64,000 bases of DNA from an uncultured Candidatus Saccharibacteria bacterium (GTDB lineage Bacteria; Patescibacteriota; Saccharimonadia; Saccharimonadales; UBA7683). Below are positions 19,748 to 50,162 of the stretch, in pieces. The notes under the pieces are model-generated. The model searched no databases. It saw only the letters and a list, made by a program, of their open reading frames with translations, and was not told the origin of the DNA. The translations under genes were made by a program, and so were the position numbers. The stretch lies in assembly GCA_964397855.1 (NCBI GenBank), contig CAYNKQ010000001.1, positions 38,046-102,045 of the forward strand. The letters are read 5' to 3'. The first letter of the stretch is position 1; each line of letters opens with the position of its first letter.

Positions 19748-19782
19748 GCTTCTAGACTAACATACGGTATACTGGGGGCAAT

Positions 19783-20702: not shown

Positions 20703-20760
20703 CAACTTATGTTTGACTACTGTTGATCAAACCAATATAATCTATTCACGTTCACTATAA

Positions 20761-20801
20761 ATATTCCGACGTAGTCCGCCAGCTGGCGGACGGGACGCTG
20801 T
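20761..20801 (+). other. Duplicated 5-prime fragment of tRNA-Asn (acceptor 5-prime strand and anticodon-stem start), with the D-arm replaced by a perfect palindrome
   Basis: ATATTCCGACGTAG (20761-20774) is identical to 21048-21061. GGGACGCTGT (20792-20801) is identical to tRNA positions 21076-21085. Between them lies TCCGCCAGCTGGCGGAC instead of the D-arm. Confidence 0.5.
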
Positions 20802-20815
20802 ATAATATATTTACC

Positions 20816-21061
20816 ATGTACGTGTATGCACTTTACAATCGGATAAATAAGAAAATCTATATTGGTCAGACGGCTAATCTAGAAAAACGACTTACTGAAC
20901 ATAATGAGAAATATGGTAATCATTTTACTGCAAAAGTTCAGGGCGAATGGGAGTTGATTTATAATGAGTCAGTTGCCACTCGCTCTGAGGCCATTAAGCG
21001 CGAAAAGCAATTAGAAAGCTTCAGGGGCAGAGAGTTTATCAAAATACATATTCCGACGTAG
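20816..21061 (+). CDS. GIY-YIG nuclease family protein
   Basis: 81 aa. MYVYALYNRINKKIYIGQTANLEKRLTEHN is a typical GIY-YIG core (Y..Y.....IYIG.T.NL.RR...H). The stop overlaps the first 10 nt of tRNA-Asn. Confidence 0.75.
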   Translation: MYVYALYNRINKKIYIGQTANLEKRLTEHNEKYGNHFTAKVQGEWELIYNESVATRSEAIKREKQLESFRGREFIKIHIPT

Positions 21062-21126
21062 CTCAGTGGTAGAGCGGGACGCTGTTAACGTTTAGGTCGC
21101 TGGTTCGAATCCAGCCGTCGGAGCCA
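21052..21126 (+). tRNA. tRNA-Asn (anticodon GUU)
   Basis: Manual fold. Acceptor TCCGACG/CGTCGGA, D-arm GCTC-AGTGGTA-GAGC, anticodon arm GGACG-CTGTTAA-CGTTT (two G-U pairs), variable loop AGGTC, T-arm GCTGG-TTCGAAT-CCAGC, discriminator G and encoded CCA. Confidence 0.85.
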
Positions 21127-22707
21127 GAATCTCTGAAACTCATTATTAGAACCGTCTTCCATCTGTTGGGGGGCGGTTCTAACCATTTCAGATACTGATA
21201 CCTTGTGATCATTCATCTTTTCGATGGGAACAAAGAGATTATTAGGGGTAAATGTGATGGTTCTATCCATCAATGAAAGTCTTTCACCAAGCTTGAATAT
21301 CACAGATCGTTTCTTTTCATGATCATCAGAGTCGAAGTCTTCCTTGGCGTATCTTGCAAAAGTAAAAACTTCATCTGCAGTTTCGCGCCAGTTTCTAGCT
21401 TCGTATTCTGACTTGCTCCGCTGATCTTGTAGTTTTTTAAGTGTCGATTCAAGTTGGGCAAGCTCTGCGAAATACCATGCGTCGTCATCAGCCTCGCCAC
21501 TGTACCTCATGCGTCTAAGGCTGGATATCGAAAGTGTTTTTTTATGAATAGCACGCTCCACTTCAAGCAACTTAGATTTTTCTTTAGCTACTATAAAATC
21601 TTCCTCCTCTGCTAGGGCCTCGATAGCTAACCTATAGAAATCCGGATCTATAGTAAACTTTTCTAGCTTTAACTTGATTTGATTAACTAACTCCTGCTCC
21701 GTCACGCAATAACTTCTTTGGGCACACTTTTGCCTGGTACTCTTACCGGTGCAATGATAATAGATATACTCACGAAGCTCGCCATTTGATTTAAGTTTCT
21801 TAGTCTTAAGCTCGGCTGTAACTCCATACCCGCACTCACCGCATTTAAGCAGGTTCCTTAATAAGAACGTCTGACTTTTGTTCTTTGGTCTAGTTGTGTG
21901 CCCAGGATCAATAATCTCTTGCACTCTCTTAAACTCCTCCTCAGTAACCATGGGGACCTGGTTACCCTTGTAAACATTACCTAAAAAACTTAATTTTCCC
22001 GTATAGAAAATGTTTTTAAATACTGTATGAAGCGTAGAGTAGGCAAGTGCTTTTCCGCCAGTCTTCCCTCGACGCGGCGTTAAAATCAAAAGTTCTTTTT
22101 CTGCAACATCCACCAGTTGAGCCACAGAGTAAGTTCCAGTCAACATTTTATCCCAGAGCGTACGGATCTTAGGAAATAGTTCCGGATCTGGGACTATTGT
22201 TTTTGCGAGTCGATCGTTGAGATAGCCAATTGGTGGGATCCCAGGCTTGTCCCCTTTGAGGGCTTTAGACTTCATACCCCTTTTAGTGTTTGCTGCTAAT
22301 TCACGGATGTACTGGTTGGACATACCAGCTTCCACGCTCAGTAGTAACGCGTTGTCTGACGGAGTATATGCTTTATCGGATGTCTGTATCATCTGCAACT
22401 TACCATCTTGAAGTAACTGCTGAAGCCTGCCGCTATCGGTGGGGTTACGAGATAAACGATTGAATTGCCAGCAAAGTATTGCGTTTATTGAACCATTCTC
22501 GATAAGCGACATCATTCGTTCGAACTCAGGTCTATTGCCTGGTAGTTTTGCAGATTTCGATTCTACGAACTTCTCCACCATCATTAGATTCTTTTGCCTG
22601 GCTAATTCACTCATAAGTCGAGTTTGGTCTTCAAGCGATTGAACCTGTTTGTCTTCTGTGTCTGTTGACTTACGTACATACAAGCCAAATTTTAATAGTT
22701 TATCCAT
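21085..22707 (-). CDS. Large serine recombinase (resolvase N-terminal catalytic domain, recombinase domain and zinc-ribbon, with a coiled-coil C-terminus)
   Basis: N-terminal MDKLLKFGLYVRKSTDTEDKQVQSLEDQ is the resolvase catalytic-Ser region. Also has C..C..C/H zinc-ribbon motifs (CGECGYGV...YYHCTG). Start set at ATG 22707, which has a good RBS (AGGAGA). The ORF track extends to 22884. The 3-prime end overlaps tRNA-Asn positions 34-75. Confidence 0.85.
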   Translation of the reverse strand: MDKLLKFGLYVRKSTDTEDKQVQSLEDQTRLMSELARQKNLMMVEKFVESKSAKLPGNRPEFERMMSLIENGSINAILCWQFNRLSRNPTDSGRLQQLLQDGKLQMIQTSDKAYTPSDNALLLSVEAGMSNQYIRELAANTKRGMKSKALKGDKPGIPPIGYLNDRLAKTIVPDPELFPKIRTLWDKMLTGTYSVAQLVDVAEKELLILTPRRGKTGGKALAYSTLHTVFKNIFYTGKLSFLGNVYKGNQVPMVTEEEFKRVQEIIDPGHTTRPKNKSQTFLLRNLLKCGECGYGVTAELKTKKLKSNGELREYIYYHCTGKSTRQKCAQRSYCVTEQELVNQIKLKLEKFTIDPDFYRLAIEALAEEEDFIVAKEKSKLLEVERAIHKKTLSISSLRRMRYSGEADDDAWYFAELAQLESTLKKLQDQRSKSEYEARNWRETADEVFTFARYAKEDFDSDDHEKKRSVIFKLGERLSLMDRTITFTPNNLFVPIEKMNDHKVSVSEMVRTAPQQMEDGSNNEFQRFWLRRLDSNQRPKR

Positions 22708-22974
22708 GAATTGTTCTCCTCTTAGAACCAAAAAGGGCGGCCTGGTTGTTGTAACATCCAGTAGCAAAAAGCCACTTTCCGTACCAAGCCGCCCGTTAGA
22801 GGACAGAAAATATAATAGCTTTTGCCAAGACCTGAATGTTACAACGTTAATATTGTATCTAAATTTATACTTACTGGCGAGCAAATCTTTATTAATAGAA
22901 ACTTGAGTGAAGATACCTTGACAGTCATGATATCTTTAATAAAGATCTAATAAATAAAGATATAATCGCGCTAA

Positions 22975-23328
22975 CTAAAATTCTAAACTTCTTAACTCTT
23001 CATTCAGTTGGTCGTGAGTTAGATCTGAAAGCTCAGCGATTGCGGGTATTTCTGTTTCGCCAGTATAGTACTTAACTGCCGCGATACAGGCGGCTTCAAT
23101 CTCTTTCCAAAGTGTTGATTGCTTAGCGAACTCCAACTGTCTGAAACTTTTTCCACTCTTTGAAGTACCTTGGGGAGTAAGAACACCCCATGATGGATGC
23201 TTACTGCCGGGCGCGAATACCATTAAGCCGTTTATATACATACCTAGACTTGGAATTGACACCTTAACCCTAAACCCACCATTTGGAATTTCCATGTGAA
23301 CCGCGGCTTCTATACCAAATTTACTCAT
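22975..23328 (-). CDS. Hypothetical protein (last gene of a three-gene minus-strand operon)
   Basis: 117-aa ORF overlapping the upstream ORF by 8 nt. No recognisable motifs. Confidence 0.4.
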   Translation of the reverse strand: MSKFGIEAAVHMEIPNGGFRVKVSIPSLGMYINGLMVFAPGSKHPSWGVLTPQGTSKSGKSFRQLEFAKQSTLWKEIEAACIAAVKYYTGETEIPAIAELSDLTHDQLNEELRSLEF

Positions 23329-23545
23329 GTTTTTTCACTTGCCGTTGCACTATTCTAATTAATTCTGCAAGCTCACGAAGTCCTTTACTGGCCGTGTCAA
23401 AGTCGATCTCTTCACCATACTTTTTTCTATATAGACGCTTAAATTCTTTAACCAAGGTAACGTTGATGTTCATTGCATCTCCTGTACATGAAAACCGCCT
23501 GACAGAATGGCTGTTCGTCAGACGGTTATCTTTGCCATTCCGCAA
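23321..23545 (-). CDS. Small hypothetical protein
   Basis: 74-aa ORF. The likely start is the internal Met (MNINVTLVKEFKRLYRKKYGEEIDF...). Basic and helical. Confidence 0.3.
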   Translation of the reverse strand: MRNGKDNRLTNSHSVRRFSCTGDAMNINVTLVKEFKRLYRKKYGEEIDFDTASKGLRELAELIRIVQRQVKKHE

Positions 23546-23617
23546 CCAATAATGGCGAAAGTAGGCGATCTATTCACTAGTTAGACTAGTAAGGTACTAG
23601 ATTTACATAAGGTGGTA

Positions 23618-24409
23618 CTAACGGGTGCTAAGTTTTTGTATTATTACGAGCTCACTTGGTGTTAATAATGCTCTACTTTTTAGCATTATGGATTTTGATC
23701 GAACCTCGGCGAACATACTAAGTGCGTTACCCTCACCAAAAACGTTTTTTCTGAAATACTGGTTTAGGTTTGCAGTATTCTTTTGTAGTTGAACATTCTT
23801 AAGACTAAACTGAAGCTCTTTCAATGAAATTTCTTGGTTAAAATTCTTGCATGCGTATGATATCACTGCCTGGGGAACACTGCCGTCAACTAGTGACTGC
23901 AGTCTATAGGTGTCATTGCCTACTCTAACAGAAGGGGTTGAGCCGCTGCTAATTTCAATTTCTGCACTAACTCCGTGAGTAGTTGGGTTAAACCCGTGCA
24001 GTTCACAAAATCTTTGAAAATTCGAATACTCGAATCCATCTAGCCATCGTTCATATTCGTACTCTCGATGGGCAGGATCAGTCTTGTACCAATCTCCATA
24101 GAGTAGCTGGTCATTTCCGTGTACTTCAAAGTAGTCTAGTTGCTGGCTTCTGTATCGATTTTCTAGACTTCGACTTTTTATGACACCTGCTTTCGTTAGT
24201 GTTTCTAGCGCGCGGTCTTCGTCCCATACATTCTGCAGGTTTACTTCAGTAGACAAGGCCTCTTCCCAATCAAAGCGCCATCTTCTGTCCTCGAAATCGT
24301 GACCTTCAAGAAATAATTCATTCAGTTTAAATAAAACTCGATTAATCCAGGTTGTATTATTTGCCATTCCGCAGACATTATACCCTGATGTAGCTAAACC
24401 TACTATCAA
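23618..24409 (-). CDS. Hypothetical protein, Trp/Tyr-rich, no recognisable domain
   Basis: 263-aa ORF. First gene of the operon adjacent to the recombinase. Confidence 0.4.
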   Translation of the reverse strand: MIVGLATSGYNVCGMANNTTWINRVLFKLNELFLEGHDFEDRRWRFDWEEALSTEVNLQNVWDEDRALETLTKAGVIKSRSLENRYRSQQLDYFEVHGNDQLLYGDWYKTDPAHREYEYERWLDGFEYSNFQRFCELHGFNPTTHGVSAEIEISSGSTPSVRVGNDTYRLQSLVDGSVPQAVISYACKNFNQEISLKELQFSLKNVQLQKNTANLNQYFRKNVFGEGNALSMFAEVRSKSIMLKSRALLTPSELVIIQKLSTR

Positions 24410-24602
24410 TCTGTGGCAATGGGTTTTATAATCAGAGAGTCTAAATCAACAAGAAGAACAAACCTTCGTGGTTCTTTGATTGCTTCCAGTAATGGGCAGC
24501 CAGTCGAAATCAGTAGGAAGCAATTCTTGTTGTTGGTTTAGACACCTTAGATTGGCTGTCCTTTTTTAGTGTCAGCATGAATAATTTACAAAAGGAGTAT
24601 TT

Positions 24603-24905
24603 ATGAAGTTCGTATATTTTGGCCTAATTCCGTTTCTTCTTACAGCCTGGTTTGTGTACAGGGAGCATTACAAGGTAGATTCAGGACCTGACCCCCTTGG
24701 TAGCAAAGACTTTAGAAACACGAACTTGGTCTTTTTGTTAATTGCTACCTGTTTCTATATGTGGCGGTTTAGTTTGGGAGCAGGTTTACTCACGGGGTTC
24801 GCGGTTTTACTTGCCAGATATTTTTGGGGTAGCGCTATTAAGACAATTAAAAGGCATGAATCTACCAACCAAGCTCCGAGAGTCAACAAGAAAGGGAATA
24901 GATGA
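24603..24905 (+). CDS. Small membrane protein
   Basis: 100 aa with three hydrophobic helices. RBS AAGGAG 8 nt upstream. Confidence 0.4.
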   Translation: MKFVYFGLIPFLLTAWFVYREHYKVDSGPDPLGSKDFRNTNLVFLLIATCFYMWRFSLGAGLLTGFAVLLARYFWGSAIKTIKRHESTNQAPRVNKKGNR

Positions 24906-25306
24906 TCTTCACTTTTTTGTTTATTTTGTTCACGCTTGTGGTTGTAAACGCCTTTCGCGATCGCAAGAAATAGCTTCCTGCTGGGGGTATCTTTTACTCT
25001 TATAAACCCCATATGGGAACCCAAAAATAAATGGGGTTGGTGCTAACGCGCGCTTTAAAGTTGCCTGCATTTTAGATTGATCTCTACTCGCTACGCTCAT
25101 TCTATGAGCTGCGAGGTGGTGTATATATAAAACCTGCCTGGGCTACTGTTAGGTGCCTGATATTTTTACGGCATAAGCATTTAAGCATCAACTGACATTT
25201 ATACAACGTTGATATACAAAGCAGGGCAGCGGAGTTATAATCAGCTAAGCAATGTAAGTACTGGCCCAGCCTTTCCACTTACAGGCTTATTAACAAGGCT
25301 GCACAC

Positions 25307-25987
25307 TCACTGGGAGTTCAAGGGTTGGATGTAGCTTGCTTCGTCAGACCGTGAACTATTCACGTCCCTGCTCACCTCAACTATGTTTAACATTCCGTCT
25401 TTGTAAGGTTTCATCAGCTGTGATATTGCATCTGGTTCATCAAGCGAAGGCTCTAGCCATAAAGACGTATCGTCCGGCTGCAAAATTACGGGCATCCTAT
25501 CATGGACTTTGCTCATTTCTTTATTTGGTTCTGTGGTGATGATTGAATAAGTACCCCAGTCATGACCTTCTGCATCTTTCCAGTGGCCGTACACGCCAGC
25601 AAATGCAAACAGTTCCTGATCCTTCGGCTGTATAAAGAATGGTTGTTTGTCACCCTTGGCACCCTTCCACTCATAGAAGCCGTTCGAGGGCACTAAGCAC
25701 CTTTGAAACTTAATAGCTTTACTCCAAGACCTTTTTTCAAACACACCCTCTGCACGAGTGTTAAACATCTTGTATTTGAACATATCTTTAGAGTCTTTCA
25801 TCCAAGGGGTCATGAAGCCCCACTTCATTTGCTCAACATGATTGCCGCCATCCTTCTGAAGGATGATAGGCACCAGTTGACTCGGTGCTATGTTGTAACG
25901 TTCTTTGAACCCAGCAACTTCTTTCTCGGGCACCTTGAACAGGTGGGGTATTTTACCTGTTTGATATAGGGTATAACGTCCGCACAT
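25307..25987 (-). CDS. SOS-response-associated peptidase (SRAP/YedK/HMCES family) abasic-site processing protein
   Basis: 226 aa starting MCGRYTLYQ (catalytic Cys2). Also has the conserved ...FNTRAE...GFYEW... SRAP motifs. Confidence 0.8.
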   Translation of the reverse strand: MCGRYTLYQTGKIPHLFKVPEKEVAGFKERYNIAPSQLVPIILQKDGGNHVEQMKWGFMTPWMKDSKDMFKYKMFNTRAEGVFEKRSWSKAIKFQRCLVPSNGFYEWKGAKGDKQPFFIQPKDQELFAFAGVYGHWKDAEGHDWGTYSIITTEPNKEMSKVHDRMPVILQPDDTSLWLEPSLDEPDAISQLMKPYKDGMLNIVEVSRDVNSSRSDEASYIQPLNSQ

Positions 25988-26037
25988 ATGACATATTGTA
26001 CTCCTATTAAATCTTTGGAACTTTCTTATCTCTCTAC

Positions 26038-26448
26038 TTAAACCACATCTTGGCGGATAGGGAATATCGGAGATGTGAACCTATCTTGGCTTACAGGGGT
26101 AGTTTCAGCCTCGGCGTCTAAAGCTTCGTTGCGTAAGCCGACGCATAAATCATCTAATGCAGTTGATCCTTTGACAACCATGGCCATTAGGCCCACGTAG
26201 GTACCTATTCTTGTGGGCTCCCTTCCTTCTAAGAGTTCGTTAGATAGTAATACTACCAGTGGTTGACAGATAATTATGCCCGTCCACATATAGAAGTTCG
26301 CTCCACCCTTAGCAAGAATCTCTGCCGCTCTACCTTCCCTCCACGACTTCTCTTGTGGAAGCGCAGGCTGATCCTGTTCAATTAACACTCCTGGGTTATA
26401 CATAACATAACTATAGCATAAATATAATAATAAAGCAAGGACAATCAT
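26038..26448 (-). CDS. Hypothetical membrane protein
   Basis: 136-aa ORF upstream of and co-oriented with the SRAP gene. Two hydrophobic segments. Confidence 0.35.
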   Translation of the reverse strand: MIVLALLLYLCYSYVMYNPGVLIEQDQPALPQEKSWREGRAAEILAKGGANFYMWTGIIICQPLVVLLSNELLEGREPTRIGTYVGLMAMVVKGSTALDDLCVGLRNEALDAEAETTPVSQDRFTSPIFPIRQDVV

Positions 26449-26707
26449 GTACGAACTTATAAATGAACCAGTAGATATGATCGCTATTTTTGGTAAATCA
26501 TTCCACGACCTTAAGCCTTATCGTTTTCGTTGGGCCGACAAAGAGTACCTGATTACTAAAATTGGATATAAGCACAAAACTAAAGAAGGAAAGAAGGTAA
26601 TCCATGTTTTCTCGGTAACCGACGGAGTTAACTTCTTCGAGCTCCGTTTCGATGCAGACGACATAGGCTGGGTACTTGGGAGGACCTGGGATGGCGAAGC
26701 CAATTAA
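26447..26707 (+). CDS. Small protein translationally coupled to the Y-family polymerase (YolD/UmuD-surrogate-like accessory factor?)
   Basis: 86-aa ORF overlapping the downstream polymerase ORF. The arrangement mirrors small-partner/UmuC-like pairs on mobile elements. No motif-level support. Confidence 0.3.
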   Translation: MYELINEPVDMIAIFGKSFHDLKPYRFRWADKEYLITKIGYKHKTKEGKKVIHVFSVTDGVNFFELRFDADDIGWVLGRTWDGEAN

Positions 26708-27971
26708 TCCCTACGGCTTAGGCTTAAACACTGAAGATCCTCGCATGATGCACATAGATATGAATAGCTGTTTCGCAAGTGTGGAGCAGCAAGCTAATCC
26801 GCTCCTGCGCGGTCGTCCGGTCGCGGTTTCGGCGTACGATTCACCTGGAGCAATAATCATCGCACCATCAATAGAGGCAAAGGCTATGGGTATTAAGCTT
26901 GGAATGACAAACGCAGAAGGCAAAGGTATATGTCCTGATCTGGTGGTCCTCACGCCCGATCCTATGAAGTATCGTGACGCAAATATTCGCTTCAGAAACA
27001 TATTTCAAAGTTATACCGATAAAGTAGCCCCAAAGTCGATTGACGAGGCTGTGATGGACTTCAGGGGGTCTCTGGCGATAAAAAATAAGACCATGATCGA
27101 TATAGGGAGGGAGATCAAACAGAGAGTGAAGGTGGAGATTGGAGAGTGGATACAGGTCAACGTAGGAATTGGCACAAGTCGTTGGACTGCAAAGATGGCG
27201 GCGGGCTTGCATAAACCCAATGGCTTGGACGTGCTTACGCACAAAAACCTACTTGATGTATACGGGCATCTACAACTGACTGACCTTACAGGAATTAGTA
27301 GACGAAACGAAGCTCGCTTAAACTCATACGGGATCTATACACCCTTAGACTTTTATAATGCGCCCGTCGACCTACTGAAAAAACAAGTGTTTCAGTCAAT
27401 CGTTGGCTACTATTGGTATGTTGAGCTTCGCGGTTGGGAAATGCATGATATCGATACGAGTCGCAGGTCCTTTGGCCACACCTATGCGCTAGGGAAGAAA
27501 ACGGTCGACAAGGCAAAGCTAGCACCTATGCTCATGAAGCTCTGCGAGAAGACCGGCAGACGGCTTCGTAGGCATGGGTATTATGCTCAGGGTATTCACG
27601 TGTCATTCGTCTACTACGACCATACATACTGGGGTAAAGGTAGGCGGGTAAGGGCGCCGCTATATACAACACAAGATATTTTTAAACACGCAATGCTGAT
27701 ATTCAACATGCAGCCACATCGCAAGATCGTAACCAATTTGTTTGTGACAGTGTACGATCTCGCCAGCAATGAATACCTCCCCAAAAGTCTGTTTGATGTT
27801 GGCAAGATGGACGTGGTTGCTCGTTCAAGGGCATTTGACGATATCAATGATCGCTATGGCGAGTTCACGGTAATACCTGCTGCGATGTTGGATGCAAAAG
27901 ACATCATTTTAGATCGCGTAGCGTTCGGTGGCGTTAAAGAACTGGAAGATCTTTATAACAACACCTTATAG
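26676..27971 (+). CDS. Y-family translesion DNA polymerase (UmuC/UvrX-like)
   Basis: HIDMNSCFASVEQQANPLLRGRPVAVS...IIAPSIEAKAMGIKLGM matches the UmuC/DinB N-terminal palm. The probable true start is the MM at 26748. Confidence 0.8.
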   Translation: MGGPGMAKPINPYGLGLNTEDPRMMHIDMNSCFASVEQQANPLLRGRPVAVSAYDSPGAIIIAPSIEAKAMGIKLGMTNAEGKGICPDLVVLTPDPMKYRDANIRFRNIFQSYTDKVAPKSIDEAVMDFRGSLAIKNKTMIDIGREIKQRVKVEIGEWIQVNVGIGTSRWTAKMAAGLHKPNGLDVLTHKNLLDVYGHLQLTDLTGISRRNEARLNSYGIYTPLDFYNAPVDLLKKQVFQSIVGYYWYVELRGWEMHDIDTSRRSFGHTYALGKKTVDKAKLAPMLMKLCEKTGRRLRRHGYYAQGIHVSFVYYDHTYWGKGRRVRAPLYTTQDIFKHAMLIFNMQPHRKIVTNLFVTVYDLASNEYLPKSLFDVGKMDVVARSRAFDDINDRYGEFTVIPAAMLDAKDIILDRVAFGGVKELEDLYNNTL

Positions 27972-28004
27972 TTGCCTTCAGAAATTCAGTATATGAAGTC
28001 AGGG

Positions 28005-28748
28005 CTATTTACCAAATAACTGGTCCAACTTTCCAAGTTCCCGCTGCTGTGTGTCAGCGTCAGAGTACATCTCCGTGATCTCGGATCTCTTAACCGCGTA
28101 AATATTTTCACTTTTAGACCACTTAACCATTTGTTCTCTGCGACGCCGTGTAAACTCTGGCTGTATTTTTGATGAGATTATTTCTATCGGAGCCCCGGTT
28201 TGTGTCGCCAAGCTTCTTGAGGTTTGAGCGTAGTTCTGAGATATCTCTTCCAGAATCTGACGATGAGTAGACTCGTAGACAATCACATCCATATCGATAT
28301 TATCAAGGGGATTGCTGGACTTTAGCTTACGCTTTAGGTCTTCAAGATCCGCCTGAATACTAGGCAGAAACTCGTGAAGAGGTTTACTCGGTTGGCCGTG
28401 GTGAGTTTGTTTGTATTCAGGAAAAGCGTCTTCTTGAGCTCCTCGGTAATATGCAGTGAGATTTCTATTTTTCTCGAAAAGGAAAAAATCCTCTGCATGT
28501 GTTTGGTCTGGTTTCATGTAGCGTATGCCAACGCCTATGGATTCGTTCTCAGTAGAGGTTGGGTAGGAAATGGTAATCTCGACCTTTATACCAGTTTTGC
28601 GATCAATTACTATGCCGTAGCTGTTTAAAAGTTCACCGATTTTGTAGCCCCAAGGATTCAGGAGCCCGCCTTGAGCCGCATCTACAATTACTTTAACTTC
28701 ATCGTAAGCCTTTGAAGAGTCCTTAATAACTTTGCCAGGTTTACTCAT
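28005..28748 (-). CDS. Hypothetical protein, downstream partner of the TIR-like gene (candidate effector/sensor)
   Basis: 247 aa, soluble, no TM and no recognisable catalytic motif. Its start overlaps the stop of the upstream gene by 8 nt. Confidence 0.45.
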   Translation of the reverse strand: MSKPGKVIKDSSKAYDEVKVIVDAAQGGLLNPWGYKIGELLNSYGIVIDRKTGIKVEITISYPTSTENESIGVGIRYMKPDQTHAEDFFLFEKNRNLTAYYRGAQEDAFPEYKQTHHGQPSKPLHEFLPSIQADLEDLKRKLKSSNPLDNIDMDVIVYESTHRQILEEISQNYAQTSRSLATQTGAPIEIISSKIQPEFTRRRREQMVKWSKSENIYAVKRSEITEMYSDADTQQRELGKLDQLFGK

Positions 28749-29550
28749 CGTTAGTTTTAAGCATTTTGATTATGTCAAAGCCCTTTTTTGCTAAAGTATA
28801 GTTCGGAGTACCTCTGCTACTAACTGCCAGCTTTAAGATGTTCTGCTGCACAAGATCATCCATATTGGCCACAACTTCTTGGGTACTGTATCGCTTAATT
28901 TGGTTGTGAATTTCTTCTTTAACTTGACCAGCCATCATTAGGTCGGAGCCACCCATGTGAACAGACACCATTATTCTTTTTTCATCTTCCATAGCCGCGA
29001 ACGCTCGCATGATCACAAGCTGTATATCATCTAAAGACTTCTCAACTTTATCAATATCTTGTTCGTCTAAGCTGTTTAGGTGGGCAGTTAGGGCGCCGAC
29101 AAGCTTCTCTTTTAACTTAGATCCATTCTTGTCATCTTTTTCAATTGAAAACTGAAGTACTCTATGGTGGGAGATATCAAAGGGTAAGTCCTTCGGATCG
29201 CCAAGATCAGCGTTAAAGAGCATCACGACATTATGTTCTGAGTGCTTTGCAATAGCATACCCAAGTTCGAACATCACATTTTGGTTAACTAGCTTAGCTC
29301 CAGAAGTTGATAAATCAACCATAGAAACGTCGGCTACGAATATTCCACAGTTATCAATTTTATCCTTGATCGTGGTCGCAATATTGGGAGAGCCGACTGA
29401 TCCTTGTGTGTCTCTATCAAGTCTTGGGGACTTTTCTAAAATATTTTTTCCCGCGAGCTCAGTAATAGAATTACTCAATGCTTTGCTTATAAAGCCCTTG
29501 GTTTTTTGATTGTTGCTTTGCCATGAGTAAAATATAGAGACACTTTCCAT
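28741..29550 (-). CDS. TIR-like domain protein (ThsB/DUF1863-like N-terminal domain plus ~120-aa helical C-terminal domain)
   Basis: 269 aa. N-terminus VSIFYSWQSNNQ matches the betaA signature of bacterial TIR/TIR-like domains (VFISYSW[DE]...). A conserved Glu sits in NVMFELGYAI about 95 aa in. Confidence 0.5.
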   Translation of the reverse strand: MESVSIFYSWQSNNQKTKGFISKALSNSITELAGKNILEKSPRLDRDTQGSVGSPNIATTIKDKIDNCGIFVADVSMVDLSTSGAKLVNQNVMFELGYAIAKHSEHNVVMLFNADLGDPKDLPFDISHHRVLQFSIEKDDKNGSKLKEKLVGALTAHLNSLDEQDIDKVEKSLDDIQLVIMRAFAAMEDEKRIMVSVHMGGSDLMMAGQVKEEIHNQIKRYSTQEVVANMDDLVQQNILKLAVSSRGTPNYTLAKKGFDIIKMLKTNDE

Positions 29551-29645
29551 AATTTAAGTATATCTCATTGAGAACGCGAACAGACAACCCCTGGGTTTAA
29601 GTCGATTATGTAAACCGAAGGTAAAACCCCGCGATCTCTATAGGG

Positions 29646-29915
29646 ATGAGTGTTAATAATAAAACCAAGGGTGGTAAGATGTTAGAAATTAGTAAAGTGC
29701 GAAGCCTCTTGACCAACGAAACAAATGGAATGTCCAATAAGCAGATTGGCGCGGTCTTAAACAGATTGGGTGATCTGCCTGAAGATGAGCTTTCGGCTGC
29801 TTGGAAGAGAGAGGTAGACCGTCATTATATAGAGTTGGCTTCCTTTCTGTATGATCGTTTCAAAAGTGCTTCTAAAGTTAACAGTTGTAAAACTGACGTC
29901 AAGATTCTTGAATAG
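29646..29915 (+). CDS. Small hypothetical protein
   Basis: 89-aa ORF with RBS-like GGGTGG upstream. Followed by the hairpin AACCGC-N7-GCGGTT at 29993-30011. Confidence 0.3.
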   Translation: MSVNNKTKGGKMLEISKVRSLLTNETNGMSNKQIGAVLNRLGDLPEDELSAAWKREVDRHYIELASFLYDRFKSASKVNSCKTDVKILE

Positions 29916-30113
29916 AATCGAAAATTAACCTATAGTGGTATGTAGACATCATGCATGAAAGGCGAATATGCGTGACAGAGCGGGTACATTTATAAAATAC
30001 TAAACCGCCTAGTATGCGGTTACTTTTAGTCTCTATAACTTATGAATCGAGATTTTGAGTAGTTGCATATGCACTACATTTCAAACGCAAGTTTGATCGC
30101 GTAAACAACAAAG

Positions 30114-30149
30114 GAACCCTGATCATTTTGACCAGGGTTCGTTTGTTTC
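30114..30149. terminator. Hairpin terminator, possibly bidirectional (GAACCCTG-N11-CAGGGTTC followed by GTTTGTTTC)
   Basis: Perfect 8-bp stem, T-rich on the plus side and CTTTGTTGTTT on the minus side. Lies ~35 nt downstream of the minus-strand gene 30180..30506. Confidence 0.4.
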
Positions 30150-30179
30150 AAGGCGCTCACGATCGCCTTTGCTTTTATG

Positions 30180-30506
30180 CTACCAAGTTCGTGTTGGTGA
30201 ATTCAACCAAGTTGCTGAGTCACTATCAATGTTCCAAGAAGACCATGTCCGTGGATAAATCCGAGTGACTAAGTACTCATCGTTCGGGTCACCTGCGCTC
30301 GAGAGCTTGTCCCGCCAATAACCTGCCGAGCTGGCAGAGTCGATAAGCCAAACTGAGCCTTGAGGGTGCGTGTACTTACCAATTCCAACGCTTTTAATCG
30401 CAGCGATAACGTCGTCGTAATCTCTGCCGGGGTTGTGTAAATCGTAACTAACTGTGTAAACCATAATGGATAGTTCCTTTATATTGTTAATGTTCTTTGC
30501 CAACAC
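30180..30506 (-). CDS. Hypothetical small protein
   Basis: 108-aa ORF. The probable start is the internal MVYTVSYDL... RBS present. Confidence 0.35.
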   Translation of the reverse strand: MLAKNINNIKELSIMVYTVSYDLHNPGRDYDDVIAAIKSVGIGKYTHPQGSVWLIDSASSAGYWRDKLSSAGDPNDEYLVTRIYPRTWSSWNIDSDSATWLNSPTRTW

Positions 30507-30992
30507 AAACAGAACTGTCGTGAGTCAGTTGATGAACTAGAGGCCAAGCGGTGGTCGGTGATTTTATGTTCGCGTAAACATGTTATGAGCCGAAAACCGC
30601 AAAGCTTTTCTAGGTGTTGGTTGGGCAGCTCCTTCTATACCCCAGAGTACCCTCTGTTAATAAAAGAAGTCTACACCACTCGAGGGACGTAGGTGCCCCC
30701 TTGCGTGGGCTACTACTCCGTGGGAGTTGTTGGTACTTCTACCTACTGCTCCCCCGAGTGCTATAGACTTAATGTCTGCAAGGATGACGGTGTACCAATA
30801 CCGTATTTTTACACAGCCTCTCTCAAGGCTGATACATTTATTATACCAGAATCCGCTTACGGCTGGAAGCTTTTAGGCCAGTTTATTGTGAAAAATACTA
30901 AGAAACGTGCTGCCTGCGAGATGCTAACAGATTAAGCGTGAATGCTGTTCAATTTCACGACCAGTCTTAAGCCACTAACCGTTTCGAACTAA

Positions 30993-31095
30993 GGTTATAA
31001 CTTCCTCTATCGTGGGGAGCCAAGCCATGTTAGATGAAGTCAGAACTGTGAAAATGGTTCTGACTTTTTGTATACCCAAAATAGAACTGAAACCG
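30993..31095 (+). repeat. Cassette-boundary repeat copy 1 (attC-like: L arm, perfect central hairpin plus T-run, R arm)
   Basis: GGTTATAACTTCCTCTATCGTGGGGAGCC ... AAGTCAGAAC-N10-GTTCTGACTTTTTG ... TATACCCAAAATAGAACTGAAACCG. The L and R arms are imperfect inverted repeats (TCTATYGT / ACAATAGA). Confidence 0.6.
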
Positions 31096-31223
31096 CAACA
31101 AAGATCGTTGTTCTGTCACAAAAGACAATCCTGCCTTAACGCCCAAGTTAATATCTACTGTGTATGCTTTGATGTCCGACATCACTGCGTCCTAGACACT
31201 AGCCAGGTTGTCTGGCGAGCAGG

Positions 31224-31712
31224 TTATACGGAAAAAATATTGCCTGCTATTATACCTATAGCTGTTGCGATACCACCAATTAGTAGTACCTCCACGGCAC
31301 TCCTAATTGGTGGAACTCTAACTATTTTACCTTTTGCATAACCGAGTACGAGTAGGCAGCTTAAGGCCGCAACAATCGCGACATCTCTTGAATAGCTCAT
31401 GGGGAAAATGATGATCGCCAAAAGTGGCACCAAGCCAGCCAGAAAGTATGCTCCGAACATTATTAAACCGCTGATTACCGGTACTCTGAATGAGTCACTT
31501 CGATCTAGCTGATGTGCGGACTTAGAGCTCAAGTATTGACCAGATCCCATCGAAAGAGCCTCGACTAATATTGTGACAACACCGGCCAATACAACCACCT
31601 GCTTATTGCCTGTACCGGTACTAATGCCAACAATAACGCCAGTAGTCGATACAAGTGCATCGTTAAACCCGAACATAGCACTTTGTAAATATTCTTTTTG
31701 GACTTTTTTCAT
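31224..31712 (-). CDS. VIT1/CCC1-family membrane protein (putative Fe/Mn transporter, short form)
   Basis: 162 aa. FGFNDALVSTTGVIVG matches the VIT-family G.NDGL.S motif. Has 4-5 TM helices. Confidence 0.6.
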   Translation of the reverse strand: MKKVQKEYLQSAMFGFNDALVSTTGVIVGISTGTGNKQVVVLAGVVTILVEALSMGSGQYLSSKSAHQLDRSDSFRVPVISGLIMFGAYFLAGLVPLLAIIIFPMSYSRDVAIVAALSCLLVLGYAKGKIVRVPPIRSAVEVLLIGGIATAIGIIAGNIFSV

Positions 31713-31759
31713 AATCTAAGTATACCCCTTTGGGTTTATATAAATGATACACTTAGGTC

Positions 31760-32011
31760 ATGAAAAATGAATTTAGCATCGATGAGGCAAGGAAGATTGG
31801 CGAACAAATCGGAGTAGATTTTACTAAGTTTGATCTTGAGGAATTTCGCAAAGGATTAGCGATTGAACTAGAGCACGGATCACACGACCCAGAAACTAAC
31901 GTTACCAATAGCGATCCACTTTTAACCGGCAAAATTGCTTGGGCACATCTTAAAGAAATCCCTGACTACTACACTCGTCTTGAAAAGATGGAGTCCGAGG
32001 CTGGCAGTTAA
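31760..32011 (+). CDS. Small hypothetical protein (acidic, ...IELEHGSHDPETNVT...)
   Basis: 83-aa ORF. First in the same-strand array. Followed by repeat copy 2. Confidence 0.4.
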   Translation: MKNEFSIDEARKIGEQIGVDFTKFDLEEFRKGLAIELEHGSHDPETNVTNSDPLLTGKIAWAHLKEIPDYYTRLEKMESEAGS

Positions 32012-32043
32012 TTAGCGCCGTTCTGAAACTATAAGATCCTGCT

Positions 32044-32163
32044 TAATTACAGTTATAACTTCCTCTATTGTTGTGAGCCAAGCTGGAATAGACGAAGTCA
32101 GAACTGGTAATTCGGTTCTGACTTTTTGTATACCCACAATAGAATTGAAACCGTTTAGAGCGT
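32044..32163 (+). repeat. Cassette-boundary repeat copy 2
   Basis: AGATCCTGCTTAATTACAGTTATAACTTCCTCTATTGTTGTGAGCCAAGC...AAGTCAGAAC-N10-GTTCTGACTTTTTGTATACCCACAATAGAATTGAAACCG. About 85% identical to copy 1. Confidence 0.65.
32105..32138 (+). terminator. Intrinsic-terminator-like hairpin within repeat copy 2 (10-bp perfect stem plus TTTTT)
   Basis: AAGTCAGAAC TGGTAATTCG GTTCTGACTT TTTG, ~95 nt downstream of the 31760..32011 stop. An identical stem is at 31037-31070. Confidence 0.5.
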
Positions 32164-32182
32164 TGTGTCTTATACTTAGGTC

Positions 32183-32776
32183 ATGAAACAGGTAGTCTTT
32201 ATACACGGCGGAACAACATTTTATAAACACAAGGATTATCTTAATTATCTCCGCTCAAAACCTATTAACATCAGCCGTCTAACCATACAAAAATTTTGGC
32301 CTGATAGATTACAAGAAGATCTGGGAGATGACTTCCAAGTTTTAGCTCCTCGTATGCCCAATGGCACTAATGCTAACTATGACGAGTGGGCCATATGGTT
32401 TGGGCGCATTGCAGAAGTGATTAATGACAACGTTATTTTAGTTGGCCATTCTTTGGGCGGCATATTTTTGGCGAAATATTTATCTGAACATGATTTTCCG
32501 AAGAAAATACGTGCTACATTACTTGTAGCCGCGCCTTACGAAGACGAGACCAATGAAGATCTGGCAAACTTCAAGATAACAGGTGGACTAGAAAAATTTG
32601 CCGAGCAAGGCGGAAATATAATCTTCTATCACGGCACGGACGACATTGTTCCTCTTAGCGAGTTGGAGCTGTACAAAAAATCCATTCCGAAAGCGGATAC
32701 ACACGTGCTTTCTGCTCAAGACCATTTCGTGAGGGAAGCATTCCCCGAAATCATTGAAGCAATAAAGAACATATAG
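32183..32776 (+). CDS. Alpha/beta serine hydrolase of the YdeN/RBBP9 family
   Basis: 197 aa. Nucleophile elbow ILVGHSLGG. Size and layout match PF06821-type serine hydrolases. Confidence 0.65.
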   Translation: MKQVVFIHGGTTFYKHKDYLNYLRSKPINISRLTIQKFWPDRLQEDLGDDFQVLAPRMPNGTNANYDEWAIWFGRIAEVINDNVILVGHSLGGIFLAKYLSEHDFPKKIRATLLVAAPYEDETNEDLANFKITGGLEKFAEQGGNIIFYHGTDDIVPLSELELYKKSIPKADTHVLSAQDHFVREAFPEIIEAIKNI

Positions 32777-32814
32777 AGTCGTCTCACAAATGTGCTACTT
32801 GTTCTAGTTAAATA

Positions 32815-32870
32815 TTAGGTCCTGTTTAATCGCAGTTTTGACTTTTTGCATGTTCACAACAAAACTGAGA
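32815..32870 (+). repeat. Cassette-boundary repeat copy 3 (degenerate)
   Basis: AGGTCCTGTTTAATCGCAGTTTTGACTTTTTGCATG... shares the AGRTCCTGYTTAAT-YRCAG left block and the GACTTTTTG right half with copy 2. Confidence 0.45.
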
Positions 32871-32909
32871 CCCCCATCATCATCAATACAGCTTTAATAT
32901 AATTTTATT

Positions 32910-33455
32910 ATGAGTACTGCAGAAAACTTACAAACAAACAATCCAGACGTGTTGCTTATTGAGCCTGATATTGAACGAGACGCCGCTCTTGGTGTTCAGT
33001 GGCTCAAGGGCGAACTAGGGCGATCAACACTTACTTCTATGGGCGTTTCCGACAAAGACAATAAGCCCACTACCCCTGAACACGAACGAGAGCGTGTCAG
33101 AGATTTCATCGAGGGGCAAGAACAGCTTAATTGGATGATTGAATATCAAGGTAGAGTTGTCGGTTCGGTGTGGGCAGAACTTAAGCAAGTCGGCAACGTA
33201 CCAGCCCCTGCTATTCATATTATGATTGGCGATCCTAATGTACGAGGTAAGGGTGTCGGGTATGCGGCAACCAGCAAAGTAACGGAGTACTTGGAAAATC
33301 GAGGGTTTAAGTCTATTTACTCAAGGCACCTGATAAAAAATAGCGGCGCAAGTGGCTTACTGCAATCACTTGGCTTTACTAATTTCGGAGAGCCATACGA
33401 TGATGATGACGGACTGGAATGGCAAAATGTAAAAAAGGAAGTCAAGGCCGAATAA
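32910..33455 (+). CDS. GNAT family N-acetyltransferase (aminoglycoside-acetyltransferase-like size and architecture)
   Basis: 181 aa. HIMIGDPNVRGKGVGYAATSKVTEYL is the GNAT acetyl-CoA-binding motif A (Q/R-x-x-G-x-G/A). Paralogous to 35408..35965. Confidence 0.7.
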   Translation: MSTAENLQTNNPDVLLIEPDIERDAALGVQWLKGELGRSTLTSMGVSDKDNKPTTPEHERERVRDFIEGQEQLNWMIEYQGRVVGSVWAELKQVGNVPAPAIHIMIGDPNVRGKGVGYAATSKVTEYLENRGFKSIYSRHLIKNSGASGLLQSLGFTNFGEPYDDDDGLEWQNVKKEVKAE

Positions 33456-33461
33456 CACTGC

Positions 33462-33540
33462 AGTCTGCCTTGATTACGGTTATAACTTGCTCTATCGTTG
33501 TGAGCCAAACAAATGCAACTCACATCTGTGGGTTGTTTTC
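33462..33540 (+). repeat. Cassette-boundary repeat copy 4 (left arm intact, centre replaced)
   Basis: AGTCTGCCTTGATTACGGTTATAACTTGCTCTATCGTTGTGAGCCAAAC then AAATGCAACTCACA. This forms a TGTGAG/CTCACA hairpin instead of the AAGTCAGAAC stem. Confidence 0.5.
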
Positions 33541-33829
33541 GTTTCTCTGGTGTTTGGTTCGGTTCGGTGACCTGAGATTGCGAAGGAATCTCGCAAGGTT
33601 ACGATTCGATAGTCAAGTGCTCTCGCAGAAGCTCGCTTCGAGAAAGTACGCAGAGTATACTCGGGTAATCCAGTCGCCGGAGCCACGAAGATTACATCTG
33701 TTAATTTTCATACCCCAAACTTGACTTCCGAACTAATACCTCTGATGAGGTATTTTTTGTTATACTAACAACATGATAAGCAAGTAATTCATCCCAGATA
33801 AATAACAATTAACAAAGGAATGAATTATT

Positions 33830-34609
33830 ATGCGTGTAAAAACTAAATACGATGACGTTAATAAAGTACTAGATCTTCTCACGGAGGGCTTAGTAGAGCT
33901 ACTCGGAGATCAACTAGTCGGCTTATATTTAACAGGATCACTGACCTACAGTGACTTCAATCGTGATAGCAGTGACATAGATTTTCTTGCAGTGCTTGAA
34001 ACCGGACTTGCTGATAGCCAGTTTGAGAAAGTGAAAAAACTTCACGAAGCGATTGCCAATGAAGTACCTCATTGGTCTAAGAATCTTGAAGGCTCTTATA
34101 TAACTCGAGGTATGTTAGGAAATATAGAGGTACCAGAGGAAAAACGTCCTTATGTAAACGGTGGCAAGGTTTCTTACTGTACCTATGGAAATGAATGGAC
34201 TATCAATTTGTACGCCCTTCAAGAATGCGGACAGGTTATCTACGGGGCGGGGGTGCAGCCGTTATTGCCAATAGTAACAATTGAGCAAGTAAGAGAATCA
34301 TCCAGGCAAGATTTACTAAAAGACTGGGCTCCTAAAGTAAATGATCCGAATGCTTTCACTCATTCAATGTATGACAGTGAACACTTAAAGAACTATGCAA
34401 CGCTAACTATGTGCAGAATACTTTACAGAGCAAAGAATGATAACATCGCCTCAAAGAAAGTTGCTTCTAAATGGGTTAAAGAGACCTACCCTGAGTGGAA
34501 AGATCTGGTTGAACGGGCAGAAGATTGGATTCACGGCAAAGAGATGGGCAGTGATACCAAAGTGAGGAAGTTTATCGAGTTTACTCTAGAACAAGTTCAG
34601 AAAGATTAA
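33830..34609 (+). CDS. Nucleotidyltransferase-domain protein resembling aminoglycoside adenylyltransferases (AadA/ANT(3'')(9)-like)
   Basis: 259 aa. LVGLYLTGSLTYSDFNRDSSDIDFLAVLE is the pol-beta-type NTase motif G[SG]-x9-13-D-x-D. Length and the C-terminal helical domain resemble ~260-aa AadA-family enzymes. RBS AAAGGA upstream. Confidence 0.6.
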   Translation: MRVKTKYDDVNKVLDLLTEGLVELLGDQLVGLYLTGSLTYSDFNRDSSDIDFLAVLETGLADSQFEKVKKLHEAIANEVPHWSKNLEGSYITRGMLGNIEVPEEKRPYVNGGKVSYCTYGNEWTINLYALQECGQVIYGAGVQPLLPIVTIEQVRESSRQDLLKDWAPKVNDPNAFTHSMYDSEHLKNYATLTMCRILYRAKNDNIASKKVASKWVKETYPEWKDLVERAEDWIHGKEMGSDTKVRKFIEFTLEQVQKD

Positions 34610-34789
34610 AGCTATTTGACGTCACGTGGCGGGATAGTTGGACTATCTCGTCATAGTACTTAGTTCGTAATATGCTTGGCAGAGGGAGCCAGAGCCAGCA
34701 GTGAAATACAGTGATCGGTTCCCGTGACCTGTTCCTGATTCACTCCTGACTCAAGTCAAGAAGAGTGACTTTAATAAAATTGCTCAAAA

Positions 34790-35284
34790 ATGCTGGAACC
34801 ATCTGAAAGGGTGGTTTTTGCATATTCACCCCTGGAAATAAGTTCTAGAGCCGAGCCGTTTCCTATTACAATGTTGCTGCCAGGCCAGGCCCCGCCATCG
34901 ATATGCAGGGCAAAAAAGGCCGTAATTATCGATGATCCACATCGGATGCCGCCTACCTTGAACACTGCAATAGGATTGGTCGAACAGTCGGAAGACGAGT
35001 TTAATGACCTTGGTGAAAGCATATTAGATCCGGTGCTTAAACAGCCGCAGCGACAACATCATCTTAAAGTTCATTATCGATCAAAATACAACAAACTTTT
35101 TGAGCGATCGCGTGAGGCGATTTATAGCAACGATGGGATTGAACCGATCTTTGAAGCAAAGCTAGCTGATGGAGCGCCTATTGATATTCTCGATGGTTTG
35201 GGTGGAGAGCTAGACGATAATGGCTACGATAAGAACTTTTACAAAATTTGCGAATCACCGAAGATTACTTGGCAAAAAAGATAG
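34790..35284 (+). CDS. Hypothetical protein (weak call; the opposite-strand ORF 34771..35022 competes)
   Basis: 164-aa ORF with no motifs. This region between the cassette-like array and the BGC is ambiguous. Confidence 0.2.
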   Translation: MLEPSERVVFAYSPLEISSRAEPFPITMLLPGQAPPSICRAKKAVIIDDPHRMPPTLNTAIGLVEQSEDEFNDLGESILDPVLKQPQRQHHLKVHYRSKYNKLFERSREAIYSNDGIEPIFEAKLADGAPIDILDGLGGELDDNGYDKNFYKICESPKITWQKR

Positions 35285-35407
35285 TAAAGCTGAATTCCGC
35301 ATACTCTTTACAAGAGGTGATGATGAACGAATCCCAAAAGTACAGAAGGATAGTCAAGGAAGGCTAATTCACCGAATTTGAATGTTTCAGGTTGCTACGT
35401 ATATCCT

Positions 35408-35965
35408 CTATACAGCCAATACGATGTTTTGCCATGCGAGCCCGTCACTATCCTTATAGGCAGCTCCGTCTTTCTTAAATCCGAGAGACTCATTTAATTT
35501 TGTTACAGCAATGTTGTCTGCGAGATGTCGAGAGTATACTGTTTTGAGTTTTAGCACATCTCGAATATAGTTTATCGCTGATTGCATTGCCGATCTACCG
35601 ATGCCTTTACCACGATAGTCGGGATTGCCTATCATGATGTGGATACTTGGGGATTTAACACCGTGATTTTCAAATAGCTCTATCCAGACGACGCCAATAG
35701 TTTTGCCGTCGGCCACGATAACACGAGTTATTTGCTTGCCGGAGTCCTCGAGATCGATAAATTCCTGCATAATGGCACGTTCACCTTCTAGGGTGGACGG
35801 TTCTATTTCGTTTTCTGAGTTGCCCATACTTAAGAGAGTGGCATGCCCTTCTGGGCGCGTAAACCAACTGTGTGCAAATGGGGTATCACGATCAACCTCC
35901 GGTTTTAGAAGTTGTATGTCGGTGTGCAGTGATTTCATGATTCTCCTATAGGCCTCGCTCGGCAT
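35408..35965 (-). CDS. GNAT family N-acetyltransferase (paralog of 32910..33455), co-operonic with the aminotransferase
   Basis: 185 aa. SIHIMIGNPDYRGKGIGRSAMQSAINYI GNAT motif A. Overlaps the upstream aminotransferase gene by 20 nt. Confidence 0.7.
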   Translation of the reverse strand: MPSEAYRRIMKSLHTDIQLLKPEVDRDTPFAHSWFTRPEGHATLLSMGNSENEIEPSTLEGERAIMQEFIDLEDSGKQITRVIVADGKTIGVVWIELFENHGVKSPSIHIMIGNPDYRGKGIGRSAMQSAINYIRDVLKLKTVYSRHLADNIAVTKLNESLGFKKDGAAYKDSDGLAWQNIVLAV

Positions 35966-37214: not shown

Positions 37215-37258
37215 GGCGCCATATTAACATAAAAGGGTTTTTCCTCTATAATTAAGCC

Positions 37259-39450: not shown

Positions 39451-39453
39451 CGA

Positions 39454-50143: not shown

Positions 50144-50162
50144 ATACCACATTATGTGGTAT
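50144..50162. promoter_or_regulatory. Perfect 19-bp palindrome ATACCACAT-T-ATGTGGTAT preceded by TTTATAAA (candidate operator 1)
   Basis: Direct read. Sits in the divergent promoter region between the deacetylase and the receiver-like gene. Confidence 0.45.

Follow-up and report, generated by a model that had tools for sequence, protein, structure and literature searches.

A probable large serine recombinase element and a stack of small cassettes at the CCA end of tRNA-Asn in a Saccharimonadales genome

In staphylococci, the large serine recombinases CcrAB and CcrC act at the 3' end of the gene rlmH/orfX, the site of the staphylococcal cassette chromosome elements SCC/SCCmec. Patescibacteria have tiny genomes and are thought to hold few mobile elements. 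Here, we describe a locus in a 64-kb stretch of a Saccharimonadales genome (Saccharibacteria/TM7, Patescibacteria; the window in the following) which, in the manner of composite SCC islands, consists of tandem units bounded by the same short repeat, some of them without a recombinase. We are fairly confident that a large serine recombinase (LSR), encoded by the element itself, has placed positions 21127-31022 (element A) as an integrative element right at the CCA end of a tRNA-Asn gene, and that element A forms the newest, tRNA-proximal layer of a stack of recombinase-less units (Table 1).

Element A is polymorphic. An exact-protein look-up of the LexA-like flank gene gave two Logan contigs from one study, L081 (SRR16798008) and L082 (SRR16797988). 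L081 carries the filled site, being identical to the window and continuing into the recombinase, whereas L082 is 99% identical to window 19107-21126 (about 2 kb), as far as the final tRNA base, then diverges and continues as an exact match to window 31023-31066. Since L082 thus represents an exact empty site, the inserted unit is 21127-31022 (9,896 bp). The sample of L082 also has a contig running from the VIT gene through the nucleotidyltransferase gene (L180) as well as contigs covering the non-ribosomal peptide synthetase (NRPS) cluster through the ATP synthase operon (L175, L177). As cassettes B and C and the NRPS-to-ATP-synthase block are retained there, this is a related strain that lacks element A alone. 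Gene order to the left of tRNA-Asn is conserved in other Saccharibacteria, and the 3' end of the tRNA represents the bacterial arm of the attachment site. On its right side, element A ends in GTTATAACTTCCTCTATCGTGGGGAGCCA, and the heptamer GGAGCCA of the left border recurs at 31016-31022; these 7 bp are all that the two ends share, a length that, judged from the sequence, fits a serine recombinase and not a tyrosine integrase. For the circular form, the predicted attP junction would join CTATCGTGGGGAGCCA to GAATCTCTGAAAC.

An earlier note on this DNA had claimed an integrated accessory region downstream of tRNA-Asn, at 21085-35300, and had named an empty-site variant as the check, which L082 now provides. 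The genes that it listed (the recombinase, three unknown genes, a SRAP protein, a small protein with a UmuC-like polymerase, a TIR-like protein, a VIT protein and a cassette-like array) are all present, the TIR-like one with weak support. The accessory nature of the region therefore stands, whereas its reading as one unit does not, as it merges at least four units: what is demonstrably mobile stops at 31022, ahead of the VIT gene, cassettes B and C follow, and 33508-35300 is the start of segment D. The lower GC content noted at the time is real but modest, with 42.6% in 21127-31022 vs. 46.2% in both flanks, and the lowest-GC 9.9-kb window of the whole 64 kb begins at 20701, coinciding with element A. 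The expected attL/attR repeat matching the tRNA 3' half is absent, in that no second copy of this half with three or fewer mismatches occurs within the window and the heptamer alone is common to both ends.

The LSR gene itself enters the attachment site. Its stop codon lies 42 nt within tRNA-Asn, so that the reading frame spans the left junction, and its last 14 codons (WLRRLDSNQRPKR) are antisense to the tRNA, with TGG-CTC as the reverse complement of GAGCCA and DSN reading the T-loop. In the excised form, the protein is predicted to end in WLPTIEEVITLVRNG (542 aa with this computed tail). The catalytic domain (PF00239, E=1e-20) contains the serine nucleophile motif, the C-terminal part matches PF07508 and PF13408, each above its cut-off, and the motifs YxRKSTD and RLSRN are invariant in an alignment of 19 LSR sequences. 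The closest homologue, P0002 (83% identical, on a 2.5-kb contig), ends in WLPTIKEVITSV and what comes next is not a tRNA but the conserved end motif described below, in reverse complement; this contig could stem either from an excised circle or from a copy located behind another unit.

This architecture is family-wide. More than 1,282 relatives of the LSR were found at E<=1e-20, the top 120 of which have about 545 aa and are 60-65% identical; the family occurs in 447 species-representative genomes, all of them Patescibacteria except for a few differently labelled bins, which may be mis-binned. At 55 of 81 loci, the LSR gene terminates within a tRNA gene convergent with it (tRNA-Asn 25, His 15, Trp 7, Gln 5, Arg 2, Glu 1), the remainder being mostly contig ends, and at the tRNA-overlapping loci a Trp codon of the LSR always stands opposite the CCA end. 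Distant members (38-44% identity; L118-L174, e.g., L120, L125, L126, L128 and L146) come from Parcubacteria, Uhrbacteria, Magasanikbacteria and others, and their LSRs end inside tRNA-His, -Trp, -Gln, -Arg or -Glu genes. Because distant members end in different tRNAs, switching of the tRNA target has occurred within one LSR family.

A second conserved trait of the family is a structured leader RNA. The stretch of about 140 nt from the promoter-like site to the LSR start codon is conserved at the nucleotide level even at about 40% LSR identity. Scored on an unfitted MAFFT alignment of nine sequences, a structure of four helices, namely an outer stem, two hairpins and a GC-rich long-range stem with a U-run behind it, was 83% paired vs. 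39-54% in slid controls, with compensatory changes at 20 of 35 pairs. The 5' strand of the long-range stem sits in a hairpin loop, the leader being pseudoknotted or terminator-containing. A covariance model built without the long-range stem detected the leader in 39 of 83 sources, each time immediately ahead of the LSR gene; on the resulting alignment, the omitted stem was 85% paired and showed compensatory changes at 5 of 11 pairs. These sources include L093, L100-L102, L105, L109, L110, L112, L113, L116, L118, L120 and L125, i.e., clades that target different tRNAs. Against Rfam, the tRNA alone attained a gathering threshold; no family did so in the leader region, the sole match there being a terminator-driven L20-leader hit of 20 bits. 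The leader is a candidate for a new class of cis-regulatory RNAs, and could serve as an attenuator or riboswitch-like control of recombinase expression. A role as a target guide resembling bridge RNAs was considered and rejected, as the conserved loop UAAAGGGGCGG is invariant across the target tRNAs Asn, Arg, Trp and His.

The conserved arm at the right end of element A is not confined to this element. Near-identical copies of its end motif, which is 29-45 nt long, lie at 30994, 32052-32080 and 33479-33507 on one strand, with 0 chance matches expected. Exact copies of this sequence-conserved motif (GTTATAACTTCCTCTATYGTKGTGAGCCA) were found in 75 stretches from about 70 Saccharibacteria genomes; 27 of these 75 stretches of 8 kb contain two to four co-oriented copies, spaced 283-4991 bp apart (median near 1.2 kb), and the copies lie downstream of tRNA-Asn, on its strand, whenever the tRNA is in view. 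Both the tRNA arm and the element arm are conserved, and the arms are arranged in tandem and co-oriented. At eight loci (L094, L096, L098, L101, L104, L105, L111 and L117), the 29-nt motif is found 7.5-10.5 kb from tRNA-Asn, although their LSRs are only about 60% identical to that of element A, and across such genomes the motif is far better conserved than the neighbouring sequence. Many motif arrays have no LSR nearby. Moreover, a strong hairpin, mostly with a U-run, is found within about 20 nt after every junction, including that between the tRNA and element A (z = -3.6 to -5.3), and junction hairpins are likewise present in other genomes. Because a hairpin follows every junction, each unit appears to bring along a replacement for the trailer or terminator of the tRNA.

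The clearest evidence for the spread of single units comes from cassette B. The exact VIT protein is on record in 36 collection blocks, and eight of the ten places that were fetched showed unrelated neighbourhoods. Compared as DNA, L083, L085, L087, L089, L090 and L091 match window 31016-32080 at 99-99.8% identity, L086 at 97% and L088 at 93%, while its flanks cannot be aligned and the flanking core proteins of these genomes share only about 45% identity. In five independent contexts, the homology begins with the GGAGCCA core (31016/17) and breaks off at 32080±2. Cassette B follows tRNA-Asn immediately in L083, L085, L086 and L090, and another small cassette stands between tRNA and cassette B in L087 and L089. 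Cassettes B and C share a 72-nt left module (83% identical) as well as the right motif. Other cassettes between the same end motifs (L086 7960-8421, L088 2833-3189, and in L087 and L089) encode, e.g., a heliorhodopsin, a short-chain dehydrogenase and a ClpB/NUDIX/rhodanese block.

Further downstream, a fourth copy of the motif (50330-50373), which is intergenic and located just past the NRPS/HDAC block, was detected by an nhmmer profile at full length on the same strand (E=0.0023, about 85% identical) and has a hairpin after it. It closes segment D, which includes an NRPS cluster at 35408-49971 (GNAT, aminotransferase, DAO oxidase, DUF2087-GNAT, a 1988-aa NRPS, a 952-aa C-T-C protein, PPTase, HDAC-like), an unusual possession for a reduced Saccharibacteria genome. 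Orthologous clusters are few, about ten in all, and the C-T-C protein has only about ten orthologues at 45-50% identity, mostly labelled Saccharibacteria where an organism name is given, and the next matches drop to 26-32%. In the Microsaccharimonas MAG (metagenome-assembled genome) L256 (1196-14537), the NRPS cluster lies 1.5 kb from tRNA-Asn next to the same LexA-like/Wzy flank, in opposite orientation; L257 is another stretch with an orthologous cluster. The earlier note had considered the NRPS cluster as possible cargo of a mobile element. As cargo of the active element it can be dismissed, because the strain without element A retains the cluster, whereas its position inside an att-delimited stack holds: the decayed motif at 50330-50373 and the orthologous cluster beside tRNA-Asn in another lineage suggest that the NRPS segment is probably old, now fixed cargo of the same insertion site.

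How such a stack could arise is outlined by the following model. A circular donor would offer its conserved arm, which the LSR would pair with that of the tRNA, and crossover within the shared heptamer GGAGCCA would leave tRNA-Asn intact. As the sequence right of the core appears only loosely constrained (AGAT(A)GA alone recurs), each insertion would regenerate a usable tRNA site, so that units could accumulate with the newest nearest the tRNA. Each of them starts with a hairpin able to replace the trailer or terminator of the tRNA and ends with the conserved arm plus GAGCCA. If the tRNA arm recombined with any arm further downstream, whatever lies between the two would be excised. The order with the newest unit nearest the tRNA agrees with the data, because element A is polymorphic and the most distal motif is the most decayed. 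We infer, moreover, that the LSR acts in trans on the cassettes, that these leave in a last-in-first-out order, and that they travel by a cell-to-cell route. With regard to the geometry of the site, GGTT stands at a distance of 30 nt to the junction in the conserved arm vs. 25 nt in the tRNA T-loop, which is suggestive, the right arms not being conserved. A symmetric half-site motif, GGTTNTAA, was considered as well and lost ground, as its right-arm copy is part of a hairpin stem and absent from other family members.

Several points weigh against this reading of element A and the stack. Sequence right of the core is poorly conserved across the family, so that the symmetric half-sites of characterised LSRs cannot be demonstrated here, and no canonical LSR is known to recombine hybrid sites of the kinds that the cassette model needs. 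No circular attP junction was observed for element A, and no recombination directionality factor was identified, for which the partner proteins of about 50 aa and 117 aa are candidates by position. Neither a Pfam family for conjugation or mobilisation (relaxase, coupling protein, type IV secretion) was found in the open reading frames (ORFs) of 21085-31022, five of which are unannotated, nor, by Pfam and PHROGs, a capsid, terminase, portal or tail gene in element A, and several of its ORFs have no assignable function. In addition, the fourth motif copy is weak (E=0.0023), and cassette C was found in this species only.

An alternative option, which we regard as unlikely yet worth keeping in mind, is the spread of the cassettes, and possibly of element A, by natural transformation and homologous recombination, with tRNA-Asn and the junction modules of about 110 nt as homology arms and the LSR inserting its own element only. 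Competence of Saccharibacteria is established, tRNA-Asn varies little from genome to genome (L083: 89% over 90 nt), B and C have junction modules that agree at 83% over 109 nt, and the many arrays without a nearby LSR would point in this direction, too. However, the arms available for such exchange would be very short, similarity between cassettes is lost precisely at the GAGCCA cores in five independent contexts, and the motif stays far more conserved than its neighbours where LSRs are only 60% identical; borders this sharp in independent contexts favour site-specific insertion over homologous exchange. That 21085-35300, or everything through the NRPS cluster, moves as one large island is improbable. 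Composites could conceivably be excised between the tRNA arm and a distal arm, given the common end motif, and GC content is uniformly lower up to 33.5 kb, but the related strain lacks 21127-31022 only and has kept all to its right, and the VIT cassette stands alone in other genomes, so that the single-unit island is largely refuted.

The phage world offers a further explanation, since LSRs are common as phage integrases, one ORF of element A matches phrog_1090 and the TIR-like protein matches phrog_3634. A prophage or phage satellite is nevertheless very improbable for a unit of just 9.9 kb that has none of the structural genes named above, and IMG/VR holds only relatives of the LSR with 25-31% identity and no member of this family. 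Least credible of all is a classical integron with a tyrosine IntI and attC sites: the short cassettes, their median spacing near 1.2 kb and the hairpin-containing repeats of about 110 nt between them recall such arrays, yet no scanned ORF of the window encodes a tyrosine recombinase, the recombinase that goes with the array is of the serine type, the end of a tRNA acts as docking site, conservation of the repeats extends to their sequence and is not limited to structure, and the cassette genes occur in both orientations. Returning to LSR-driven insertion, a wider proposal can be put forward tentatively, namely that Saccharibacteria (and other Patescibacteria with other tRNAs) possess an LSR-based analogue of integrons, in which the CCA end of a tRNA docks cassettes with sites of about 45-110 nt and trailer hairpins of their own, a trans-acting LSR stacks and unstacks them, and a pseudoknotted leader RNA gates LSR expression.

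Across the LSR family, partners of about 50 aa and about 115 aa are encoded directly upstream of the LSR, the smaller one beside it in at least 11 loci, distant clades included. For the 117-aa partner, no Pfam family was found, a word-indexed homologue search gave 3 matches, a profile search against the PDB returned only spurious designed Kelch repeats, and its AlphaFold model (pLDDT 68) had no Foldseek match below E=0.9. The 263-aa protein is cargo specific to element A. Among the remaining cargo, the SRAP gene recurs near the LSR in L106 and L114, and the pair of 86-aa and UmuC-like genes in L109 and L114; an exact-protein look-up showed SRAP not to be on record. The TIR-like protein matches CAP12-PCTIR_TIR (E=1.2e-6, 29 bits at a cut-off of 24.7) and PADLOC PDC-S35 (E=7e-7), both weakly, which makes it and the 247-aa protein a candidate defence pair. 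Searches of the unannotated ORFs of element A with Pfam, PADLOC and PHROGs gave almost no matches, and no replication genes were found in the element. Its right end includes about 480 nt (30507-30985) with GC-rich patches and without a convincing ORF, for which neither a similar sequence in any fetched locus nor an Rfam match was found.

Table 1. Features of the tRNA-Asn locus and its surroundings (window positions).
Feature	Position	Strand	Remarks
Exopolysaccharide and GlmS region, then GalU, GtrA, LexA-like protein, GIY-YIG ORF	left window part		
tRNA-Asn(GTT)	21052-21126	+	ARAGORN; Rfam tRNA 71 bits; intact, CCA encoded; sole tRNA gene of the window
attL core GGAGCCA	21120-21126	+	last 3 nt of acceptor stem, discriminator base and CCA; L082 identity ends at 21126
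LSR	21085-22707	-	Resolvase, Recombinase, Zn_ribbon_recom (Pfam); 540 aa from MDKLL
Structured leader RNA	22708-22848	-	GC-rich stem and U-run at 3' end, just before ribosome-binding site
Promoter-like site	22880-22852	-	upstream of leader RNA
Three unknown genes, same strand as LSR	22975-24409	-	
117-aa protein, conserved LSR partner	22975-23328	-	beside LSR in 16 loci
Small helical protein, conserved LSR partner	23321-23545	-	likely start at MNINV methionine, about 50 aa
263-aa protein	23618-24409	-	ORF; no family matches (Pfam, PADLOC, PHROGs); one weak relative
SRAP/YedK-type abasic-site peptidase	25307-25987	-	PF02586, E=2e-69
86-aa protein and UmuC-like Y-family polymerase	26447-27971	+	IMS, IMS_C domains
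247-aa protein and 269-aa TIR-like protein	28005-29550	-	weakly supported
108-aa protein, phrog_1090	30180-30506	-	E=5e-21
Element A right end (attR1)	30986-31022	+	conserved arm GGTTATAACTTCCTCTATCGTGGG and core GGAGCCA; E=3e-13
Cassette B	31023-32080 (1.06 kb)		terminator-like hairpin at left end; end motif 32037-32080
VIT, 162 aa (cassette B)	31224-31712	-	
DUF5661 (cassette B)	31760-32011	+	
Cassette C	32081-33507		left hairpin module homologous to B; end motif 33465-33507
Alpha/beta hydrolase (cassette C)	32183-32776		
GNAT (cassette C)	32910-33455		
Segment D	33508-50373		16.9 kb; decayed end motif 50330-50373
Segment D genes			Pfam: AadA-like nucleotidyltransferase, 164-aa ORF, GNAT, class-III aminotransferase, DAO oxidase, DUF2087-GNAT, two NRPS genes, PPTase, HDAC-like
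ATP synthase operon	right window part, from ~56300		

The other side of tRNA-Asn is of interest as well. A partial duplicate of the 5' portion of tRNA-Asn brackets an 81-aa GIY-YIG ORF (20816-21061; region 20752-21061), and the sequence at 20763-20805 consists of TTCCGACGTAG, the palindrome TCCGCCAGCTGGCGGA and CGGGACGCTGT, followed by TATAAT. The layout seems to reflect insertion of a small GIY-YIG gene at the 5' border of the tRNA gene; in L089 and L122, GIY-YIG homologues likewise adjoin tRNA-Asn. Within the polysaccharide region, a Fic/DOC protein (5922-6662) overlaps a SocA/Panacea-domain protein (6649-7230; span 5922-7230), which is likely a toxin-antitoxin pair, and, according to the precomputed table for L081, a gene of the family of 23S rRNA intervening-sequence proteins (PF05635) is located at 15616-16023, between a glycosyltransferase and a Bac_transf gene. 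The best relatives of the GalU homologue (18854-19747) are Saccharimonadales MAGs at 52-61% identity, with none closer in the species-representative collection. Synteny anchored on GalU was uninformative, as its 80 loci had no tRNA or shared neighbours.

A literature search, incomplete in its coverage so that an earlier description is possible, yielded no account of LSRs that target the CCA end of tRNAs or of comparable arrays in Patescibacteria. The locus shows that one site in these genomes turns over rapidly and shares identical cassettes between divergent species, with a cargo ranging from metal transport, translesion synthesis and candidate defence genes even to an NRPS cluster. A family of tRNA-CCA-targeting LSRs with compact, defined sites in hundreds of genomes would help to explain gene flow in this group, and could serve as a site-specific integration tool for organisms that are only now becoming genetically tractable.

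Compared with described systems, the locus shares features with several of them. The phage integrases phiC31, Bxb1 and A118/LI have the same Resolvase, Recombinase and zinc ribbon parts, a short site identity (7 bp here) and a precise, conservative insertion, but here no phage is recognisable, the targets are tRNAs and the right-hand arms show little conservation. Insertion at the 3' end of a tRNA and tandem accretion of recombinase-less elements are also known from tRNA-targeting islands with tyrosine integrases and from the accretion of integrative and conjugative elements (ICEs) and cis-mobilizable elements (CIMEs) in Streptococcus thermophilus, which differ from the present case by the serine recombinase, by a 7-bp repeat instead of a 15-50-bp copy of the tRNA 3' end, and by the lack of a conjugation module here. 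Integrons resemble it in outline, with a fixed docking site, small cassettes of mostly one or two genes with a conserved recombination site, the newest cassette nearest the docking site, and identical cassettes common to different genomes. In contrast to integrons, the recombinase here belongs to another superfamily, cassettes dock at the 3' end of a tRNA, it is the sequence of the sites that is conserved, with no attC-type R''/L''/L'/R' layout, there is no common promoter logic, and excision of internal cassettes is probably impossible. By analogy, the system appears to work most like the composite SCC/SCCmec islands: in both, a conserved housekeeping gene receives the LSR-driven insertion at its very 3' end and is not inactivated, tandem elements are separated by short direct repeats, and recombinase-less pseudo-elements have the same ends. 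What sets the locus apart from SCC/SCCmec is its target, the CCA end of tRNA-Asn and not the protein gene rlmH, the LSR reading frame that crosses the junction, units as small as about 0.3-1 kb, and its host, the Patescibacteria.

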